The position numbers and the translations under genes are program-made. Below the pieces are notes generated by a model. The model saw only the letters and a list, made by a program, of their open reading frames with translations, was not told where the DNA came from and did not search any database. From Candidatus Omnitrophota bacterium (GTDB lineage: Bacteria > Omnitrophota > Omnitrophia > Omnitrophales > Aquincolibacteriaceae), in NCBI GenBank assembly GCA_023247055.1, contig JAHFHF010000007.1:2186-66185 (forward strand): DNA of 64,000 bases, in the 5' to 3' direction. Position 1 is the first letter of the stretch; each line of letters starts with the position of its first letter. Of this stretch, positions 8,093 through 58,246 are shown one piece after another.

Positions 8093-8163
8093 CTGCCCGA
8101 CCTGGGCTCGAACCAGGAATCTTGCCTCCAAAGGGCAGTGTGATACCATTTCACCATCGGGCA
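8093..8163 (-). tRNA. tRNA-Gln (anticodon UUG)
   Basis: Minus-strand sequence TGCCCGATGGTGAAATGGTATCACACTGCCCTTTGGAGGCAAGATTCCTGGTTCGAGCCCAGGTCGGGCAG folds as a cloverleaf: 7-bp acceptor stem with U1-A72, D arm GTGA/TCAC, anticodon loop CTTTGGA, T arm CCTGG-TTCGAGC-CCAGG. CCA is not encoded. Confidence 0.75.
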
Positions 8164-8343
8164 ATGATTTAAAACGTCGGGTTTTAAATCGGTTATAGTC
8201 CCAATGCATCAGCAGTGGGGCAATAAAGCAAAACATCACGTTTTGATTTGCTTATAGTCCCAGCGCATCGGCGATGGGGCAATGATTTAAAACGTCGGGT
8301 TTTAAATCGGTCATCGTCTCAACGCATCTGCGTTGAGGCAATG
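8161..8343. repeat. three tandem structured repeats directly upstream of tRNA-Gln, each with two hairpins and compensatory substitutions
   Basis: Units of about 60 nt. Hairpin 1: ATTTAAAAC-GTCGG-GTTTTAAAT. Hairpin 2 differs by copy: CCCAATGC..GCAGTGGG, then CCCAGCGC..GGCGATGGG, then CTCAACGCA-TC-TGCGTTGAG. Each unit ends GGGGCAAT-like, resembling the tRNA 5' acceptor end. Confidence 0.7.
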
Positions 8344-9388: not shown

Positions 9389-9568
9389 GACCAATCTTTC
9401 TTCTTGCCCCTCCGCGTCATGCGCAGGGACTTTGCCTCGGCGGCCAAGGAAGCCGCCGTAGGCAATCAGGACCAATCTTTCTTCTTGCCCCTCCGCGTCA
9501 TGCGCAGGGACTTTGCCTCGGCGGCCAAGGAAGCCGCCGTAGGCAATCAGGACCAATCTTTCTTCTTG
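9389..9568. repeat. 81-bp tandem direct repeat (2.2 copies) duplicating the 3' end of the bS22-like gene plus a GC hairpin
   Basis: Unit GACCAATCTTTCTTCTTGCCCCTCCGCGTCATGCGCAGGGACTTTGCCTCGGCGGCCAAGGAAGCCGCCGTAGGCAATCAG at 9389..9469 and 9470..9550 with a partial third copy. Each unit has the hairpin CGGCGGC-TTCCTTG-GCCGCCG. Confidence 0.85.
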
Positions 9569-9665: not shown

Positions 9666-9812
9666 AGTCGTGAGTCGTTAGTCTTGAGTTGTGAGACAAT
9701 AAAAAATTTAAAACCCACCGAACTGTTAATCGTGAATGATGAGTAAAACCGTAAAAAAATAAGGCCTCACGCTTTCAACGCTTTACTCAAGACCCATCCC
9801 TCAAGACTCACG
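9666..9812. repeat. intergenic cassette flanked by inverted arms of GTGAGTC-type tandem 6-7-mers
   Basis: Left arm AGTCGTGAGTCGTTAGTCTTGAGTTGTGAG (9666..9696). Right arm ACTCAAGACCCATCCCTCAAGACTCACGACT (9781..9812), its imperfect reverse complement. About 85 nt of unique sequence between them. Confidence 0.75.
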
Positions 9813-9818
9813 ACTGTT

Positions 9819-12749: not shown

Positions 12750-12775
12750 GAATAAGCACCGAGCACCGGGCACCG

Positions 12776-12873
12776 GGCACCGAGCTGTAAAAAAACTTAA
12801 ACGTCACAACAATAATTGACTCGATGACGCCGCGTATTTTTTCGGTGCTCGGTGCTTTGTGCTAGGTGCTAAT
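12776..12873. repeat. intergenic cassette flanked by inverted arms of GCACCG(A/G) tandem 6-mers
   Basis: AGCACCGAGCACCGGGCACCGGGCACCGAGC ... CGGTGCTCGGTGCTTTGTGCTAGGTGCT. Confidence 0.75.
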
Positions 12874-14337
12874 TTTTAATTTTTTCTCAAGAATTTCATT
12901 AACCATTTTGGGATTTGCCTTGCCCTTGGTTTCTTTCATGACTTGGCCGACTAAGAATCCAAGCGCCTGCTGTTTGCCGGCGCGAAAATCCTCAACCGAT
13001 TTGGGATTGGCGGCAAGGGCTTTGTCCACGGCTTCTTCGATCTGCTTTGTGTCCGTCACTTGCACCAGGCCTTTTTCTTTGACAATCGCCTCGGCGGACT
13101 TGCCAGTTTCAAACATTTCAGGCAGGACGTCTTTAGCGATTTTACCGCTGATGGTGTTGTTTTCGATTAAACGCACTAGGCCGGCAAGATCTGCGGGTTT
13201 GACCGGAGAATTTTCAATGGAGATTTTTTTAGAGTTCAAAAGAGCAAGCAGCTCCGATTGAATCCAATTGCTGGTCAGCTTTGCGCCAGCTTTTTCTTTG
13301 ATCGCGGCCTCAAAGTAATTGGCCAGTTTCCTATCCTGCACAAGCGTATAAGCGTCATAAGGAGACAGCCCGTGATCGCGGATCAAACGCTTGGCGCGGT
13401 CTGCAGGCAGTTCCGGTAGGGTCGCGCGGATTTTCTCCACCGATTCGCGTGAAAGCGTAAACGGCACAAGATCCGGTTCGGGAAAATAGCGGTAATCATG
13501 GGCTTCTTCCTTAGAACGCATCAGAAACGTCTGGCCTTTATCGTCGTTCCAGAGCCGTGTTTCCTGAGAAATTTTTTCGCCGCTTTCGAGGACTTTCGTA
13601 TGGCGTTCCACCTCGTATTGAATGGCTTTTTGCACGGCCTTAAAAGAATTGAGGTTTTTAATTTCCACGCGCGTGCCGAATTTCGCTTCACCCTTGGGAC
13701 GGATAGACACGTTGGCATCGCAGCGCAAGCTGCCCTCTTCCATATTGCAATCGCTGACTTCCAGGTATTCCAGCACGGCTTTCAGCGCTAAAAGATACGC
13801 ATAAGCTTCTTCGGGTGAGCGCAGATCGGGCTCGGAAACAATTTCGAGGAGTGGAATGCCGCCGCGGTTGTAGTCCACCAAACTGCCGTCTTTGACACCC
13901 TCATGTACCAGCTTGCCCGCATCCTCTTCAAGATGCGCGCGCGTAATGCCGATCCGTTTTTCTTCCAGGCTGCCGTCCGCACGTTTGAGGTCAATCAACA
14001 GATGCCCGCCTTTATTGACTGGCATGTCGAATTGGGAAATCTGATACGCCTTGGGCAAATCGGGATAAAAATAATTTTTCCGGTCAAACTTCAAACGCTC
14101 CGCAATTTCAGCATTCAGGGCAAGGCCCGTTTTAACAGCAAACTTCAGGGCCTGTTCGTTGAGCACAGGCAGCGAACCCGGCCACCCCAAACACACGGGG
14201 CATGTGTTGCGGTTGGGCTCGGAACCAAAAGTGGTCGGGCAAGCGCAGAACAATTTGGACTTGGTGTCCAATTGCACGTGCACTTCAAGACCGATAACCG
14301 TCTCGTAATTAGTCGTGAGTCGTGAGTTGTCAGTCAT
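12862..14337 (-). CDS. gatB: aspartyl/glutamyl-tRNA(Asn/Gln) amidotransferase subunit B
   Basis: YETVIGLEVHVQL GatB N-terminus and a C-terminal GatB/YqeY domain. The first 10 codons lie in a GTCGTGAGT tandem-repeat block. Confidence 0.9.
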   Translation of the reverse strand: MTDNSRLTTNYETVIGLEVHVQLDTKSKLFCACPTTFGSEPNRNTCPVCLGWPGSLPVLNEQALKFAVKTGLALNAEIAERLKFDRKNYFYPDLPKAYQISQFDMPVNKGGHLLIDLKRADGSLEEKRIGITRAHLEEDAGKLVHEGVKDGSLVDYNRGGIPLLEIVSEPDLRSPEEAYAYLLALKAVLEYLEVSDCNMEEGSLRCDANVSIRPKGEAKFGTRVEIKNLNSFKAVQKAIQYEVERHTKVLESGEKISQETRLWNDDKGQTFLMRSKEEAHDYRYFPEPDLVPFTLSRESVEKIRATLPELPADRAKRLIRDHGLSPYDAYTLVQDRKLANYFEAAIKEKAGAKLTSNWIQSELLALLNSKKISIENSPVKPADLAGLVRLIENNTISGKIAKDVLPEMFETGKSAEAIVKEKGLVQVTDTKQIEEAVDKALAANPKSVEDFRAGKQQALGFLVGQVMKETKGKANPKMVNEILEKKLKIST

Positions 14338-14809
14338 GAGTTTAATTATCAGTCTTCAGTTGTGAGTCGTGAGTCTCGAGTTTCGAGTTTTGTGATATCA
14401 ATTTTGAATTAGCAGCAATATTTATTTTTTTTAAAAGAGCCTGCGTCATCTTGCAAATTTCTTCATTCTTGAATAGCAGTTCGTTATAGCAAGCAGGCGC
14501 GATATAGCCTAACCGCCGTGCGACGTCCAACTGCGTTTCAATTTCCCCCAATGATCCCAAAGCGATAGATAAAAACTGACGGTACTCTTTAAAATGCTTT
14601 CTGCGGAATCCTTCCGCAATATTGCACGGAACTGAAACTGCAGCACGACGCATTTGAACTATCAGTCCGAATTGTTCATCCCGCGGAAACGCTTTTGTAA
14701 CCTGATAAATCTCCTCAACAAACGCGATCCCTTTTTGCCAGATCACCAAATCTCTAAAACTTTTTATCTTTTCACTCAAGACTCATCCCTCACGACTCAT
14801 GACAAAATA
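14311..14809. repeat. GTGAGTC-type inverted-arm cassette enclosing the four-helix-bundle protein gene between gatA and gatB
   Basis: Blocks TAGTCGTGAGTCGTGAGTTGTCAGTCATGAG (14311..14340) and GTCTTCAGTTGTGAGTCGTGAGTCTCGAGTTTCGAGT (14350..14395) oppose CACTCAAGACTCATCCCTCACGACTCATGAC (14771..14809). Confidence 0.75.
14342..14779 (-). CDS. four-helix-bundle protein (23S rRNA intervening-sequence protein family)
   Basis: KSFRDLVIWQKGIAFVEEIY...AAVSVPCNIAEGFRRKHFKEYRQFLSIALGSLGEIETQLDVARRLGY matches the TIGR02436/PF05635 family. TTG start at 14779 with SD GAGGGA. C-terminal 25 codons read through the flanking repeat block. Confidence 0.75.
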   Translation of the reverse strand: MSEKIKSFRDLVIWQKGIAFVEEIYQVTKAFPRDEQFGLIVQMRRAAVSVPCNIAEGFRRKHFKEYRQFLSIALGSLGEIETQLDVARRLGYIAPACYNELLFKNEEICKMTQALLKKINIAANSKLISQNSKLETHDSQLKTDN

Positions 14810-16224
14810 GGTTTTTGTTTAAATAATTGCAATTCCTGTTCCAACGCATAGCCGGCACGCAGCAGCGTGGTTTCTTCAAAAGGACGGCCCATAAGCTGCA
14901 GGCCGATGGGCAGTTTGCCGCCGGCAAAGCCGCAGGGCACTGACAGCGCGGGCACACCGGCTAAATTGGCCGGAATGGTGAAGATGTCTGAAAGGTACAT
15001 CGCAATGGGATCGGCTGTTTTCTCGCCGATTTTAAAGGCCGGGGTCGGGGTCGTCGGCCCGAGAATAAGGTCGACTTCTTTAAACGCTTTCTGAAAATCA
15101 TCGCGGATCAGGGTGCGCACTTTCTGGCCCTGCCGGTAATAGGCATCGTAGTAACCTGCGGACAACACAAACGTCCCGAGCAAAATGCGACGTTTGGCCT
15201 CGGCGCCAAAGCCTTCGCTGCGGGTATTGAAATAAAGCTCTTTCAAGTCTTTGCCCGGCATTCTGGCACCGTAACGTACGCCATCATAGCGGCCCAGGTT
15301 GGAACTGGCTTCAGCGACGGCCACAATGTAGTAAACCGCCACCGAGTGGGGCGTATGCGGCAGCGAGACGGTGCGGATTTCAGCGCCAAGCTTGCGGTAA
15401 ATTTCAGCCGCATCGCGTACGCTTTTCTCAATTTCAGGATCAAGGCCTTCAATAAAAAATTCTTTAGGCAAACCGATCTTAAGGCCGCGCATATCTTTTT
15501 GCAAAGCGCCTGTGTAATCCGGCACCGTCATTTTGGCTGAGGTGGAATCGCGTGCATCATGCCCGGCGAGAATGTTCATCATCAGCGCCGTATCTTCGAC
15601 GGTTTTTGTAATGGGTCCGATCTGATCAAAACTCGATCCGAAAGCAATCAGGCCGTAACGTGAAACCAGACCGTAAGTTGGCTTCAAACCCACCACGCCG
15701 CAAAAAGCCGCCGGTTGACGAATCGAACCGCCCGTGTCGCTGCCCAATGCGGCAAAAGCCATGTCTGCGGCCACAGCCGCGGCCGAACCGCCGCTGGAAC
15801 CGCCGGGAACCCGTTCCAAATCCCACGGGTTACGCACCGGTCCATGCGCGGAAGTCTCAGAAGAAGACCCAAAAGCAAACTCATCCATATTGGCTTGCGC
15901 AAAAATGACGCCGCCGGCCTGTTTAATTTTTTCAACCGCTGCTGCGTCATACGGCGGAATATGCCCTTTAAGGATTTTAGAAGCACACGTTGTTTCCCAG
16001 CCGTCGATGCAGATATTGTCTTTGATCGCAATAGGAATGCCGGACAGCAGCAGGCCTTGCGCGCCGGATTGACTGACTGCCTTGGCCGCATCAAAGCGCA
16101 CAAACGCATTGATCTTAGGATTGAGCGCCGCCGCACGGTTACGAACAGAGGCCAGGACGCCGGCGCTGTCTTCGCGCGCCGCCTTTTGGGCTTCCTTTAA
16201 AGTCAGGGAGAAATACTCGGACAT
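14797..16224 (-). CDS. gatA: glutamyl-tRNA(Gln) amidotransferase subunit A
   Basis: 475 aa amidase-signature protein ([13 protein letters not shown], Ser-cisSer-Lys triad context). Confidence 0.9.
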
Positions 16225-33300: not shown

Positions 33301-36300
33301 AATAAAACGCACACCTTCGTTTTGGACCTGTTTTAATTTTGCGAGGCGGCCGCTGCTGGGTCCGTCAATCACAGCCACTTTTTGATCTTGCCCGAGCCAC
33401 TTCGTAATTTCATTCTGCCAATTGGCCAAAAGATGATTCGGCGCCATGATCAAAACTTGTTTGGCGCCCGCATCCTGCGCTGCGATCAGCGCCTGAATCG
33501 TTTTACCCACGCCCATATCGTCGGCCAGAATGACACGGCCCGCATTTTCATGCCTGGCGAAATAAACTCCGGCGATCTGATGCAGCATCAATTCCGACGG
33601 ACTGATCGGGCCGCCGTTTCCGTTGCCATTGGTGTAATGCACATACTGCTGATAATTTTTCTGCTGCAGCGCCGCATAATAATTTTTAATCTGCTGATAA
33701 ATGGCCTGTAACTCTGCCGCCGCACCGGGGGGAGCCGTCTTAAACCAGGCTGCCGCTATTTGAAGGGCCTTTTGTGCTGTGGTTTTTTCAGGATCTTTGG
33801 GCAGCTTGAGCGCCGCCTCCAGCAGGGCATTGTAAATGCGCGTGATGATTTGGCGTTTGATCACTTCCCGGATCTCCTGCTGCACTTCGCTTGAAAATGA
33901 AGCTGCGGCAGGAGTATGCCAATATTGGCTAAGGGCCTTTTGCATTTTTTCGCCCATCAGTGTTTCGTGGCTAAAGGGCTGGATGTGATTATTGCTTTCG
34001 TAATCGAGAAACTTTTCGCTGATTAGGGCCAGCAGCGATTTCACCGGAAAATCCGGGTGCCGTTTCGCAAAAAGATAAAAGAGCGCGGCCTGGCCCTGAT
34101 CGGTATTGAAAAGATGCATCCAGGAATCCATGTCCATCTCTTCGGCGATTTGATTAAAAGACTGCCGCTGGCCGGCATTGATATGTTTCTCTAAATCGAG
34201 GCGCTGAGCGGCTTCTTCCTGGCCTTTGTAGGCAATTTTGTTTTTACTGAGTAAAAATTCGAGCGTCGAAACCGCAGAACCCTGCTTCTGACGCAGTTCG
34301 TCGTAATAACGATAAAGCGTATCAAGCCCGTAAGGCTTGGCCGCTTGGCTTAGCCGCAAGAGCGGCGTTTGCCTGAAAATCCGCTCCGCCTCGGCGCGGT
34401 CCAGCCGCATCCACTGATCGAGTGTCAATCCGGCGGATTGAAGTAAAAGCTGTACCAAAAAGCGGATCTGTGAAGGACTGCGCTTAGCCCAATCCACTTT
34501 TTGCGGATCCGTCAGCCAGGGGTCTGCGGCCCCTGCGGCCTCTTGGTGGCGCATCTCAGAGCGCGCAAATTTCGGAGTTAGAAGTTTGAAGTTGGAGGTT
34601 GGAAGATTCGAGCGGTCGGAAAATTCGGGATGAAATCTATTTTCTTTTTTACTTCCAACTTCCAACGTCCAACTTCCAACTTTTTGGCGCATCTCAGAGC
34701 GCTGCAGGGGCCGGGCCCCTTTTGCTTTTCTCTTGGGGGCGGGCTTGAAAATGATTTCTAATTCCCATCGCTGCAGATCAGGCACACCGGATAAAACGGC
34801 CAGCCGTTCCTGCGCACTCGCCCGGGCGTATTCTTCCTTGAGTAAAAATTCAGCCAGCTTGAGCGCATTCTCACGCGAAATGGTTGGCCGCACTTTATGG
34901 GTCTTGGTTGTCTTCCCTGTAAACCACCAGAAGACTGTCCAGACATTCACGCCGACAGCATCCACGATGGGTCTATAAGAAACAGGCGATTTGCCTCGGC
35001 TGGGATATTTGGCTGCCGCCACACGAGCGGCATTTTGCAGAAAATGTTTCTTAAACTGACGCACCTGTTTGCGCCGCGCCTGGGTCCCCGCACGATCATC
35101 CAGATGACCGCGAATAAACCATTTCCCGGGAACTTTGATTAAAGTCTGACGCTGTGTTTCCGAAAGAACGACTTCGTCATTGCGAGGCTCCCGCTGCTTT
35201 TTGGCGGGCGGCGAAGCAATCTTCAGCCCGGAATTTGCCGCAGTCTTTGCGGCGCCTTGTAAGGCATTTCCCCTTTGGGGCGGCGCGCGGTCTTTGCTAG
35301 CCGTTTTAGGCGATGCCGTTTTTTTCTTTTTCCCCGCCTCATAAGGAAAAAACACTTCAAGCTGTGCCGGCGTTAAATCAGGATTGCCGGCCATCCGCGC
35401 CAAAAGCTTATGACTTGAATCGTGCGGATAAGTACTCTTCAGTAAAAATTCAGAGGCCAACAAGGCATTTTCCCTGGAAATGATCCGTCGCTTGATCCAG
35501 TGCGTGATCATGCCCGCATGCCCGCGCCCTCGCGTTTTTACCAGATGCGGCGAGACATAGTCTGCCAGATTTTGGAGTATGACTTTATTTGTCCTTTTTT
35601 GCAGCAAAAGCATTGTTTCCAAATTATCAAAAAAGCTATCTCGAAGTTTGGCCGTGTCCGAAAATCCTCGGACTTGCCGCAATGTTTTCCACACTTCAAG
35701 CCCTTCAAGCGCCGGCGCTACAGAGCGCATCTCAGACCTAGCCCGAGCATCATCCGAAGCTGGCCTTCGGCGTATTTCGCTTCGCATGGGGTTCACGATT
35801 CGGGCAGTATCGAACACTTTATTTTTTAAATTAAAATTAAATAAATATTGATTTAAAATAAATACTCGGATATTATGTTTTATCCAAATAAAAATACGGG
35901 CGATCGCATGAAGATAGGGACTCTTCGAGATGAAAGACAAGACACGCCGGTATGAAACCGGTAAAATGCTGATTGATTTATCAAAATATTTTGCGACGGC
36001 AATTGCCGCCGGTACTATTGCCAGCGGCCGATTTGATTGGGGAGTCGTCATTACCGGGCTAGTGCTGGCATTTCTAAGCTGGGCTATCGGATTTGTAACC
36101 ATCCCGGAGGATAAGGAGAGCAAATGAGTAATTTTGAAGTCTTTGCCATTGGCTTCGTTGTTTTCGTCTCGATGGTCGGATTGATTGTGGCGATTAATCA
36201 CCGCTTGAGTGAGCGGCAGCGTCCCCATCCGCCCCACGGCACTTAAGCTGGGGATGCGACGAATTTCTGAGCGCTGCGCTTGAAGAATTTGGCCGTAACG

Positions 36301-45682: not shown

Positions 45683-45868
45683 CAATGAGCAACGAGTGGC
45701 GAGCAATGAGTCAGTAAGCAGCAAACTCTGAGTATGCATAAAACTGGAAGAGATTCATGCCACAATTTTTACTAGTACCTACTGGAATTATAAAATCACC
45801 GGAACACGTTTCTTTGGTGCGGGCTGGGTTTCTCCCCTCATTACTCATTGCTCATTGCTCGTTGCTGT
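45683..45868. repeat. intergenic cassette flanked by inverted arms of GCAATGA-type tandem 7-mers, upstream of birA
   Basis: AGCAATGAGCAACGAGTGGCGAGCAATGAGTCAGTAAGC ... CATTACTCATTGCTCATTGCTCGTTGCT. The centre contains TTACTA ... TATAAAAT, promoter-like. Confidence 0.7.
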
Positions 45869-49891: not shown

Positions 49892-51535
<1,644 letters not shown>

Positions 51536-51584
51536 TTAGTCGTGAGTCATGAGTCGTGGGTCTTGAGTAAAAAGCAGTAAGTAC

Positions 51585-51627
51585 AAAAAGCCCTGATATC
51601 CTTTGTTGGATGTCAGGGCTTTTTTAT
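51585..51627. terminator. bidirectional rho-independent terminator between groEL2 and the convergent rRNA methyltransferase gene
   Basis: AAAAAGCCCTGATATC - loop CTTTGTTG - GATGTCAGGGCTTTTT gives a 16-bp stem with one mismatch, an A-run before and a T-run after. Confidence 0.7.
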
Positions 51628-51631
51628 TCAC

Positions 51632-51720
51632 TTTGTCATTCTGAACGGACAGAGAACAATTTAAATGTCGCGAAGAATCTCCGAACAATCTGAGATCCTT
51701 CGCTGCGCTCAGGATGACCC
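51632..51720. repeat. family A-prime palindromic element, downstream of groEL2
   Basis: TTTGTCATTCTGAACGG...CGCGAAGAATCTCCGAACAATCTGAGATCCTTCGC...CTCAGGATGAC. Confidence 0.7.
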
Positions 51721-51773
51721 TAAAAAAACGTCATTCGGGACAGGCTATTTTTTTCCTGCCTTAAACTCATGGC

Positions 51774-52724
51774 TCACGACTCAAGACTCACGACTTTTTT
51801 AATCTTCGCTGCAAAGAAACCTTCCATCAGACCGTCGGGTAAAATACGCAGGGATTTCTGGACGGCGGGATGAAAGGTTTTCTTGCCCCATGCGGCAAGG
51901 CCATCCATGCGGTTCGCGAAAGTCACTTCCGCAGGCAGGATTTCAAGGTCGCTGAATTTTTCAAGCGCCCATTCCAGAATGCCTTCGTTTTCTTCCGGAG
52001 CAAAGGTGCAGGTTGAATAAACCAACGTGCCGCCTGGCTTTAAAGCCTGCCAGGCCGAATAAAAAAGCATCTTTTGGCGCGGCACTAGACTTTTGATTTT
52101 GGCAGTTTTCCAGCCTGCGAAACTTTCCGGATCCGATAAATGAAACCGTCCCTCGCCGCCGCAGGGCGCATCCAACAGCACCCGGTCAAACTCGCCGGCC
52201 CTTTTGCGGCCTAGGTTTTCTCCTTTGGCCACCGAGTAATCCACATTCCGAACGCCTAGGGCTTCGAGATTGGCTTTCATTTTGAAAAACCGCGCACGGC
52301 TGACATCATTGGCCACAATGCGCCCCTGGTTCTGCATGCAGCCTGCTATTTGCCCGGTTTTACTGCCCGGCGCAGCAGTCAAGTCGAGAACGGCCTCCCC
52401 TGCCTGGGGTGCAAGCAATAGCACGGGCACCATGCTGGACAGTTCCTGCACGTAAATCAATCCTTCACGGTAGGCGGCGGTATTCTGCAGTTCCCGTAAT
52501 GTTCCCCGTGTCAGGATGAAAGCCTGGTCATACCAGGGCACTGGACGCAGTTCAAAGGTCTGAGCCGGAAGCGCCTTGCAGACAGTTTGAATGCTCCCTT
52601 TAATCCGGTTAACGCGAAAGGTGACGGGCCGGGCGGTCTGAAAAGACTGCAGGGCCGTTTCCAAAAATGCGGCAGGCAGGATTTTCTGCAGCCGCTCGAG
52701 AAAGGGCTCAGGGAGAGTTGGCAT
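51774..52724 (-). CDS. RsmB/RsmF-like (NOP2/Sun family) rRNA cytosine-C5 methyltransferase
   Basis: SAM-binding DLTAAPGSKT, catalytic DAPCGGEG (motif IV ProCys) and TCT (motif VI). Start probably at the internal ATG 52724. Confidence 0.75.
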   Translation of the reverse strand: MPTLPEPFLERLQKILPAAFLETALQSFQTARPVTFRVNRIKGSIQTVCKALPAQTFELRPVPWYDQAFILTRGTLRELQNTAAYREGLIYVQELSSMVPVLLLAPQAGEAVLDLTAAPGSKTGQIAGCMQNQGRIVANDVSRARFFKMKANLEALGVRNVDYSVAKGENLGRKRAGEFDRVLLDAPCGGEGRFHLSDPESFAGWKTAKIKSLVPRQKMLFYSAWQALKPGGTLVYSTCTFAPEENEGILEWALEKFSDLEILPAEVTFANRMDGLAAWGKKTFHPAVQKSLRILPDGLMEGFFAAKIKKVVSLES

Positions 52725-58117: not shown

Positions 58118-58246
58118 AACTCGTGATGAGCGGTGATGAGTGATTGGTGACTGGTGATTAGTGGCTGATAAAAGGAGCCGCTACGCGGCATTAAATGTCA
58201 CGCAGTGACACATCCACCAATCACTAATCACCAGTCACTAATCACT
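58118..58246. repeat. intergenic cassette flanked by inverted arms of GTGATGA/TGATTAG tandem 7-mers, between convergent genes
   Basis: GTGATGAGCGGTGATGAGTGATTGGTGACTGGTGATTAGTG ... CACCAATCACTAATCACCAGTCACTAATCAC. Centre contains GTCACGCAGTGAC. Confidence 0.75.

Follow-up and report, generated by a model that had tools for sequence, protein, structure and literature searches.

Background

Intervening sequences (IVSs) that carry an open reading frame (ORF) are known from bacterial 23S rRNA genes, where that of Coxiella (Warrier et al. 2016, PMC4990558) measures 428 nt, encodes an S23p ORF and is closed by a 28-bp stem of terminal inverted repeats; two to three GACAGAT heptamers in tandem directly precede its start codon, and RNase III cleaves it mid-stem, at the first heptamer. 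The same paper lists ORF-bearing IVSs for Leptospira, Xanthomonas and Brucella besides Coxiella and does not list Salmonella, so that of the two genera named for such IVS-encoded ORFs by an earlier reading of the present locus from its letters (the sequence-only reading), Leptospira is borne out and Salmonella is not. Here we describe an element of this build that lies between two protein genes, gatA and gatB, in a 64,000-nt stretch of DNA (the window, meaning the whole stretch that was analysed) from a Candidatus Omnitrophota bacterium (GenBank assembly GCA_023247055.1, contig JAHFHF010000007.1). The element is a cassette in which arms of tandem heptamers, in inverted orientation, bracket an ORF of the four-helix-bundle (4HB) family that is also known as the 23S rRNA IVS-protein family. 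The cassette supplies the start codon of gatB. The link that emerges across the whole family between 4HB genes and heptamer hairpins is a more interesting result than the single locus from which it was approached.

Tandem repeats of 7-nt units have a literature of their own. The short tandemly repeated repetitive (STRR) sequences and related intergenic heptamer repeats of Nostoc, Calothrix, Xanthomonas (GGGAATC), Beggiatoaceae (TAACTGA) and Geobacter (GGGACCG) mostly occur in 3-6 copies at gene boundaries, often as inverted pairs; they differ between closely related organisms, and AGT or AGG is frequent in them. Xanthomonas campestris ATCC 33913, which encodes XCC0516 of the four-helix-bundle family, has 186 GGGAATC arrays, and the genome of Nostoc PCC 7120 is likewise rich in both features. 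The papers describing them in Xanthomonas and Nostoc (PMC4692102), in Beggiatoaceae (PMC4679880) and in Geobacter (PMC2700814) do not mention the four-helix-bundle family. Apart from the description of the Coxiella IVS, we found no general link between heptamer repeats and this family in the full-text literature, of which our coverage was incomplete, so that a prior description is possible.

A four-helix-bundle cassette in the gatCAB operon

Across 11.7-16.6 kb of the window, the minus strand encodes gatC, gatA, the ORF, gatB and tsaD, in that order. The features of the cassette and of the genes on either side of it are as follows.

14797-16224, minus strand: gatA (Pfam Amidase, E=1e-152), its stop codon inside the 5' arm
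14773..14804, minus strand: 5' arm, about four degenerate GAGTCGT heptamers (Tandem Repeats Finder, inverted-repeat finder, duplex energy)
14342-14779, minus strand: four-helix-bundle ORF, 145 aa, TTG start (PF05635, TIGR02436, PDB 2GSC)
14346..14395, minus strand: inner 3' heptamer array, encoding the tail of the ORF; alternative partner of the 5' arm
14311..14342, minus strand: outer 3' arm (TTAAACTCATGACTGACAACTCACGACTCACGACT), carrying the gatB ATG and codons 2-10
12862-14337, minus strand: gatB (Pfam GatB_N and GatB_Yqey)
14310..14796, minus strand: inserted segment of ~487 bp (boundaries +/- 2 nt), between the gatA TGA and the ancestral gatB sequence ...ATTACGAG

The sequence-only reading had reported a 145-codon ORF splitting gatCAB between gatA and gatB and had assigned it to the four-helix-bundle family, and both observations hold. 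The ORF is present at that junction and matches PF05635 (23S_rRNA_IVP) over residues 9-113 of the protein, with E=1e-38 and 132.2 bits against a cut-off of 33.8 for the 106-position model, as well as TIGR02436 ("four helix bundle protein"), with E=4e-36 and 123.4 bits against a cut-off of 24, both scores being above the cut-offs. The core domain comprises residues 9-120, and the C-terminal ~25 residues are translated heptamers. The nearest solved structure is PDB 2GSC (XCC0516 of Xanthomonas campestris; E=2.8e-23). This entry and 2RLD, the solved structures of the PF05635 family, each contain five chains, and Xcc0516 is a homopentamer by published description; by homology to the two structures, the product of the ORF is predicted to form a homopentameric toroid of four-helix bundles. 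No further 4HB gene was found in the window by phmmer on six-frame ORFs, which returned the query alone. The ORF had no PADLOC match, and a role as an anti-phage defence component was set aside.

The period-7 arrays detected by Tandem Repeats Finder lie at 14311-14341, 14371-14390 and 14774-14803, and the inverted-repeat finder pairs the upstream array with each of the others: 14306-14341 with 14774-14809 (36 nt, 78% complementary) and 14352-14381 with 14774-14803 (30 nt, 77% complementary). Tandem-heptamer arms in inverted orientation thus bracket the ORF, as had been noticed from the letters. As RNA, the 5' arm pairs at -37.2 kcal/mol with the outer 3' array and at -35.5 kcal/mol with the inner one, compared with about -14.7 +/- 3.5 kcal/mol for shuffled arms, which places the real arms at a z of about -6; in the minimum free energy (MFE) fold of 14300-14815, the fold proposed earlier as a check, the outer pairing closes the entire element. 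The interrupted stem of ~35 bp that the sequence-only reading envisaged is accordingly seen in part: the arms do pair, over an interrupted ~30 bp, and the 5' arm pairs best with the outer array (14311-14342, within gatB) rather than with the inner one, the latter being nearly isoenergetic.

The arms also carry the signals of the genes around them. Within the 5' arm lie the gatA TGA (14797-14799), a GAGG that resembles a Shine-Dalgarno (SD) sequence (14788-14791) and the TTG start of the ORF (14777-14779), with a TGA present in all three frames of the arm; the 3' arm has the gatB ATG (14335-14337) at its loop-proximal end. The earlier observation that the arms supply the TTG and SD of the ORF, its C-terminal tail and the first codons of gatB is therefore correct in each of its parts.

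Set beside the 23S rRNA IVSs of Coxiella and Leptospira, the element shares their protein family (PF05635), their size range (428-759 nt, compared with ~487 nt here), the terminal inverted repeats that close a long stem around the ORF, the tandem heptamers immediately 5' of the start codon with the start itself in the arm, and a sporadic occurrence among relatives. It differs from them in lying between protein genes of an essential operon rather than in helix 45, 25 or 9 of the rRNA, in having arms that overlap the flanking genes and supply their signals (the gatA stop and the gatB start), and in having a less perfect stem, from which excision by RNase III would damage gatB. Structurally the gatA/gatB element is the same kind of element as an ORF-bearing rRNA IVS, and only its position outside 23S rRNA separates the two.

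Insertion at the gatA/gatB junction

Scanning metagenomes with GatB gave 80 loci, of which the seven at 72-77% GatB identity were used to compare the junction (L084, L085, L088, L089, L090, L092 and L096). In all seven gatA is directly upstream of gatB, and in most of them gatC or tsaD is also seen in the same order. The insert is absent from 7/7 of these relatives, where the gatA stop and gatB start form ATGA or TCATGA or are separated by a gap of no more than ~20 nt; an allele of the window junction without the insert would have gatA and gatB joined as TCATGAATTACGAG. In the window, the junction instead reads TTGTCATGA / GTCGTGAGG ... CACGACTA / ATTACGAG, the slashes marking the ends of the insert. 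The difference is visible in the proteins as well, since GatB of the seven relatives starts M-x-YEPVIGLEVH whereas that of the window starts MTDNSRLTT-NYETVIGLEVH, the ATG and nine extra codons (MTDNSRLTT) coming from the 3' arm of the cassette. No alternative in-frame gatB start is present upstream of the conserved core in the window sequence. Among the 80 gatB loci of the scan, none (0/80) has a four-helix-bundle gene. The comparison with relatives that had been proposed earlier thus finds the gene wholly missing from their junctions, and not retained there as a conserved operon member without repeats. Because the junction is empty in the seven relatives, the cassette is a lineage-specific insertion, placed exactly at the overlap of the gatA stop and the gatB start.

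The sequence TCATGA occurs at both ends of the cassette (14334-14339 and 14796-14801) and was considered as a target-site duplication; it was rejected as such since the TTAAACTCATG stretch is also present in a copy of the arm that has no ORF, at 51760 (described below). In one more distant locus of the scan (L091, with a GatB 68% identical to that of the window), the gatA/gatB junction holds another small ORF of ~120 aa at 2040-2520, which looks like a DUF559/Vsr-like endonuclease (..FRRQ..IVDF..IELDG..), is unrelated to the four-helix-bundle ORF and is flanked by hairpins of the GGGGGAAGG type. Small selfish genes seem to have landed at the gatA/gatB junction more than once.

Heptamer arms across the four-helix-bundle family

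The family to which the ORF belongs is very large, with 23,049 clusters at 50% identity (E<=1e-3) in the library searched. A genome scan with alignment of homologs provided a sample of 80 4HB loci from phyla that include Acidobacteriota, Planctomycetota, Bacteroidota, Proteobacteria, Chloroflexota, Firmicutes and the Candidate Phyla Radiation, together with one archaeal metagenome-assembled genome (MAG). RNAduplex applied to whole flanks was uninformative, long-range spurious pairs dominating the result, and it was replaced by a test of local complementarity between the two flanks, scored against shuffles and shifted controls with a threshold of z>4. By this measure the upstream flank is complementary to the downstream flank in 65/79 cassettes, compared with 1-3 of 60-72 (about 3%) at controls shifted by 1.2-2 kb; to the question raised earlier, whether other four-helix-bundle genes also sit between inverted arms, the answer is that most of those sampled do. 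A 23S rRNA context was seen at none of the 80 loci of the sample (0/80), the universal sarcin-ricin and peptidyl-transferase motifs being absent. An architecture of inverted heptamer arms outside rRNA is thus the norm for the family, and the gatA/gatB locus is not special in this respect.

Seven is the preferred period of these arms. Tandem arrays with a lag of 7 occur at 1.74/kb in the flanks of 4HB genes and at 0.134/kb elsewhere, and arrays at other lags within 5-12 do not exceed 0.17/kb in the same flanks, which makes the lag-7 arrays at least 10-fold commoner. The heptamer itself varies from locus to locus (GAGTGGC, GTCAGTA, AGTGGTT, AGGGATC, AGTACCG and others), and the upstream arm is polar relative to the ORF, being G/A-rich with 13% C; AG is found in 82% of its units (54% expected) and AGT in 42% (16% expected). 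Most 4HB genes are co-oriented with their upstream neighbour (66/77), at a median gap of ~55 nt. A tendency for the upstream arm to hold stops in all three frames is a weak trend, with 22/65 arms having them compared with 14/65 on the reverse complement, and on these counts it was dropped as a design rule for the family. The arrays in the window have the properties by which STRR sequences are recognised, i.e., at least three tandem 7-nt units at gene boundaries and specificity for period 7; unlike what has been described for those repeats, the heptamers here form the arms of a gene cassette and those of derivatives that lack the ORF.

The closest named homolog of the ORF, at 59% identity, is found in another Omnitrophota MAG (GCA_043813255.1; locus L164), between cheA and cheC. 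Its cassette has the same GAGTCGT arms with a TTG start within the arm, so that the arms and the ORF travel together. Two cassettes are present in this cheB-4HB-cheA-4HB-cheC operon (L164, 440-1000 and 2930-3480), the second with AAGTCGT arms. Arrays that lack an ORF but have the heptamer of the local cassette were found within 3 kb of it at six loci (L013, L033, L028, L032, L041 and L070), whereas at two others (L021 and L066) the nearby ORF-less arrays have a heptamer unlike that of the cassette.

Among the cluster representatives of the family, many reach 150-430 aa and have the 4HB domain at one end. The long ones are probably an annotation artefact, produced by gene calls that read through stop-free arms into the neighbouring genes. 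In a CRISPR-discovery study (PMC10910872), "23S rRNA IVP" was among the proteins associated with CRISPR arrays; one may speculate that this association came about because repeats of the heptamer or hairpin kind had been taken for arrays.

ORF-less heptamer hairpins in the window

Six further heptamer hairpins, none of which contains an ORF, were recognised in the window.

9666..9816, minus strand: hairpin directly after hisG (Tandem Repeats Finder, folding, arm homology)
12752..12870, minus strand: hairpin of AGCACCG type between gatB and tsaD (Tandem Repeats Finder, folding, relatives)
34564..34683, plus strand: hairpin of AGTTGGA type inside the giant ORF 18337-42201 of the minus strand (Tandem Repeats Finder, folding)
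45684..45866, plus strand: hairpin of AGCAATG type between alr and a BPL-family (biotin/lipoate ligase) gene (Tandem Repeats Finder, folding)
51530..51795, plus strand: hairpin of GAGTCGT type after groEL, with groEL and rsmB as neighbours (Tandem Repeats Finder, folding, arm homology)
58120..58246, plus strand: hairpin of GGTGATT type after an ATP-grasp gene (Tandem Repeats Finder, folding)

Two of the six are homologous to the arms of the gatA/gatB cassette beyond the repeat unit. The 5' arm of the hairpin at 9666-9816 is identical to that of the cassette at 35/42 positions, including GAGGGATG..TTGAGT, and the segment at 51760-51795 is identical to the outer 3' arm at 31/35, including the non-repeat TTAAACTCATG; because the latter copy shares this stretch, the ATG with which gatB now begins is native to the 3' arm of the element. 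When all seven heptamer elements of the window are considered, 6/7 share the orientation of the upstream gene, and in these the purine-rich arm comes first. Rfam, at its gathering thresholds, found a single tRNA in the window and no known RNA family for the hairpins.

The hairpin at 12752-12870, a second insertion in the operon, gives gatB its last three codons and stop (IST*) and ends 6 nt before the tsaD ATG; in relatives the gap between gatB and tsaD is 9-60 nt and has no hairpin. At 51530-51795 the groEL TAG is in the arm, and a terminator-like hairpin occupies the loop. The hairpin at 34564-34683 is antisense to, and in frame within, a 7954-codon ORF with an SNF2 helicase domain, which it lengthens by 46 residues. 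On either side of the hairpin lies a direct repeat of 17-23 nt (34542-34564 and 34680-34702) that encodes RSEMRQ / RSEMRH.

A small gene within inverted repeats, accompanied in the same genome by dispersed ORF-less hairpins at gene ends, is also what one finds with REPIN/RAYT systems and with miniature inverted-repeat transposable elements (MITEs) and their autonomous partners. ORF-less copies that share the ends of the gene-bearing element, which are characteristic of those systems, are present here at 9666-9816 (for the 5' arm) and 51760-51795 (for the 3' arm). The differences are that the window element encodes a four-helix-bundle protein in place of an HUH/Y1 transposase, and that its arms are internally periodic at 7 nt and diverse within one genome.

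Probable origin and accommodation of the cassette

In our view the gatA/gatB element is likely to be a selfish cassette of the IVS type, with horizontal mobility, that was inserted at the overlap of gatA and gatB and was tolerated there, keeping a translational coupling that runs from gatA through the ORF to gatB; mobile cassettes of this kind would be those first seen as ORF-bearing intervening sequences of 23S rRNA. The cassette, having no promoter of its own, would be co-transcribed with gatCAB, and its insertion would be neutral with respect to polarity and tolerated because its arms put back the stop and start signals that it destroyed. Ribosomes would terminate gatA inside the 5' arm, meet the SD-like GAGG and the TTG of the ORF 15 nt after the gatA stop, and finish the ORF at its TAA, 4 nt before the ATG of the 3' arm that now serves as the gatB start, the original coupling of gatA to gatB being replaced by a relay from gatA to the ORF to gatB. 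In untranslated RNA, the 5' arm would be expected to pair with either 3' array and mask the start sites, and the stem would be opened by ribosomes as they complete gatA. By analogy with Coxiella and Leptospira, it is a candidate substrate for RNase III, and this model could do without any processing. The protein may act in the maintenance or spread of the element, or may bind to its own arms.

This account is supported by the family membership of the ORF, the pairing of its arms, the empty junction in the seven relatives, the heptamer arms across the family, the homolog between cheA and cheC, the ORF-less copies at 9666 and 51530 and the published Coxiella IVS. In its favour, too, a scan confined to the sigma-70-type consensus gave no promoter on the coding strand across 14200-14950. 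Several observations weigh against it. gatB has no recognisable SD; and the evidence for the putative relay consists of the spacing and the coupled arrangement in relatives. No transposase-like domain (HUH/Y1 or DDE) was found in the ORF, its matches being to PF05635 and bAvd only, and the arms vary in sequence among elements of one genome, unlike the ends of classical transposons. There is no excess of flanking direct repeats, such as target-site duplications would leave, in 42 cassettes. The stem is imperfect, with 24-25 pairs per 32 nt and no unbroken helix longer than 11-12 bp, and mismatches in the arms of the 65 cassettes are not biased towards G:U over A:C (55 vs 68). Because G:U does not exceed A:C, RNA-level selection on the stem is left without a signature.

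Other explanations differ from this one chiefly in where the element is thought to act. The reading closest to the proposal made from the letters is that it is an IVS excised from an mRNA by RNase III, i.e., that the stem is cleaved in vivo, the ORF RNA is freed and the gatCAB transcript is split into gatCA and gatB as a processing or regulatory step. RNase III is nearly universal in bacteria, the stem reaches -37 kcal/mol and the MFE fold closes the element. Moreover, the suggestion of an IVS-like element in an mRNA is supported as regards structure because the Coxiella 23S IVS, which RNase III cuts mid-stem at the first heptamer (PMC4990558), has the same build. Such processing would be awkward at this locus, however, because the gatB AUG lies in the stem, and a cut in the outer pairing would hit gatB codons 2-10, just 3' of the AUG, and remove it. 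The helix is also interrupted, with runs of no more than 12 bp, translating ribosomes would open it, and the missing G:U bias across the 65 cassettes speaks against it as well; in sum we regard excision here as rather unlikely. A somewhat better prospect, although we still lean away from it, is a DNA-level mobile system that resembles REPIN/RAYT or the pairing of MITEs with autonomous elements, in which the 4HB protein would mobilise or maintain both the cassette and the ORF-less hairpins, with the arms forming hairpins or cruciforms in the DNA. Such a system does not conflict with the selfish cassette that we favour, as it concerns the manner of spread. It would fit the absence of the insertion from relatives, the presence, within one genome, of ORF-less copies homologous to the cassette arms, the nearby ORF-less arrays that share the heptamer of the local cassette at the six loci named above, the inheritance of the arms along with the ORF and the symmetry of the arm mismatches. 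Target-site duplications are typical of MITEs and absent from the hairpin-dependent IS200/IS605 and REP elements; with no excess of direct repeats beside the 42 cassettes, and with a flanking repeat of 17-23 nt at one ORF-less copy, the present elements may resemble the latter. On the other side, no nuclease, recombinase or HUH motif was detected in the protein by Pfam, NCBIfam or PADLOC, at least five heptamer types occur among the seven elements in 64 kb beside a single 4HB gene, and the polarity of the arms with respect to transcription points to a constraint at the level of RNA or translation.

It could also be argued that the heptamer hairpins are regulatory or structural elements of the host (terminators, mRNA stabilisers or translational insulators) and that the 4HB protein regulates the host by binding RNA, its gene lying in one of them by chance, given that 6/7 hairpins are at gene ends and co-oriented with the upstream gene, that one loop has a terminator-like hairpin, and that a regulatory role has been proposed for heptamer repeats in Beggiatoaceae, Nostoc and Geobacter. 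Neither the gatA/gatB cassette nor the gatB/tsaD hairpin is found in the relatives, and neither is therefore a regulatory feature conserved with the operon. One of the hairpins is within a coding sequence, a terminator inside the operon between gatA and gatB would do harm, and the distribution of the hairpins is sporadic, all of which makes a host function improbable. Least of all do we favour the identification of the ORF as Avd, the accessory protein of a diversity-generating retroelement (DGR), with which it has a homologous four-helix-bundle fold and a weak similarity (PF22296 bAvd, 32 bits; NF033474, 26.5 bits; PHROG "Avd protein of DGR", E=1e-11). These scores fall under the curated cut-offs of the Avd models (40 for PF22296 and 80 bits for NF033474), that of PF05635 is far higher, and the ORF, flanked by gatA and gatB, has neither a reverse transcriptase nor a pair of template and variable repeats beside it; on these grounds the identification was rejected, and we see hardly any chance of its being right.

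Beyond the single locus, we would put forward only tentatively, and with more doubt than the selfish cassette itself, the idea that four-helix-bundle cassettes and ORF-less hairpins make up one very widespread and unrecognised class of bacterial mobile elements, of which the 23S rRNA IVSs would be the special case that was noticed first. Such a class might be the source of the STRR excess, and its pentameric protein might recognise its own heptamer arms, as DNA or as RNA, and so promote spread or maintenance.

Implications

Three puzzles, each some 35 years old, concern the origin of rRNA intervening sequences, the job of the very large "23S rRNA IVS protein" family and the over-representation of 7-nt tandem repeats in many bacterial genomes. 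Taken together, the gatA/gatB locus and the 80-locus survey suggest that the three are facets of one type of element. The locus also illustrates how a selfish insertion can fit into an essential operon with translational coupling when it brings stop and start signals along, and it bears on how one reads the small "hypothetical" genes that are found wedged into operons. Gene calling is affected as well, the arms often being translated as spurious N- or C-terminal extensions.

Other repeats in the window

Two repeats of longer period were also observed. A perfect 81-bp tandem duplication lies at 9389-9568 (2.2 copies, 100% identity), and a 59-bp repeat at 8159-8343 (3.1 copies, 73%) adjoins the tRNA at 8093-8163.

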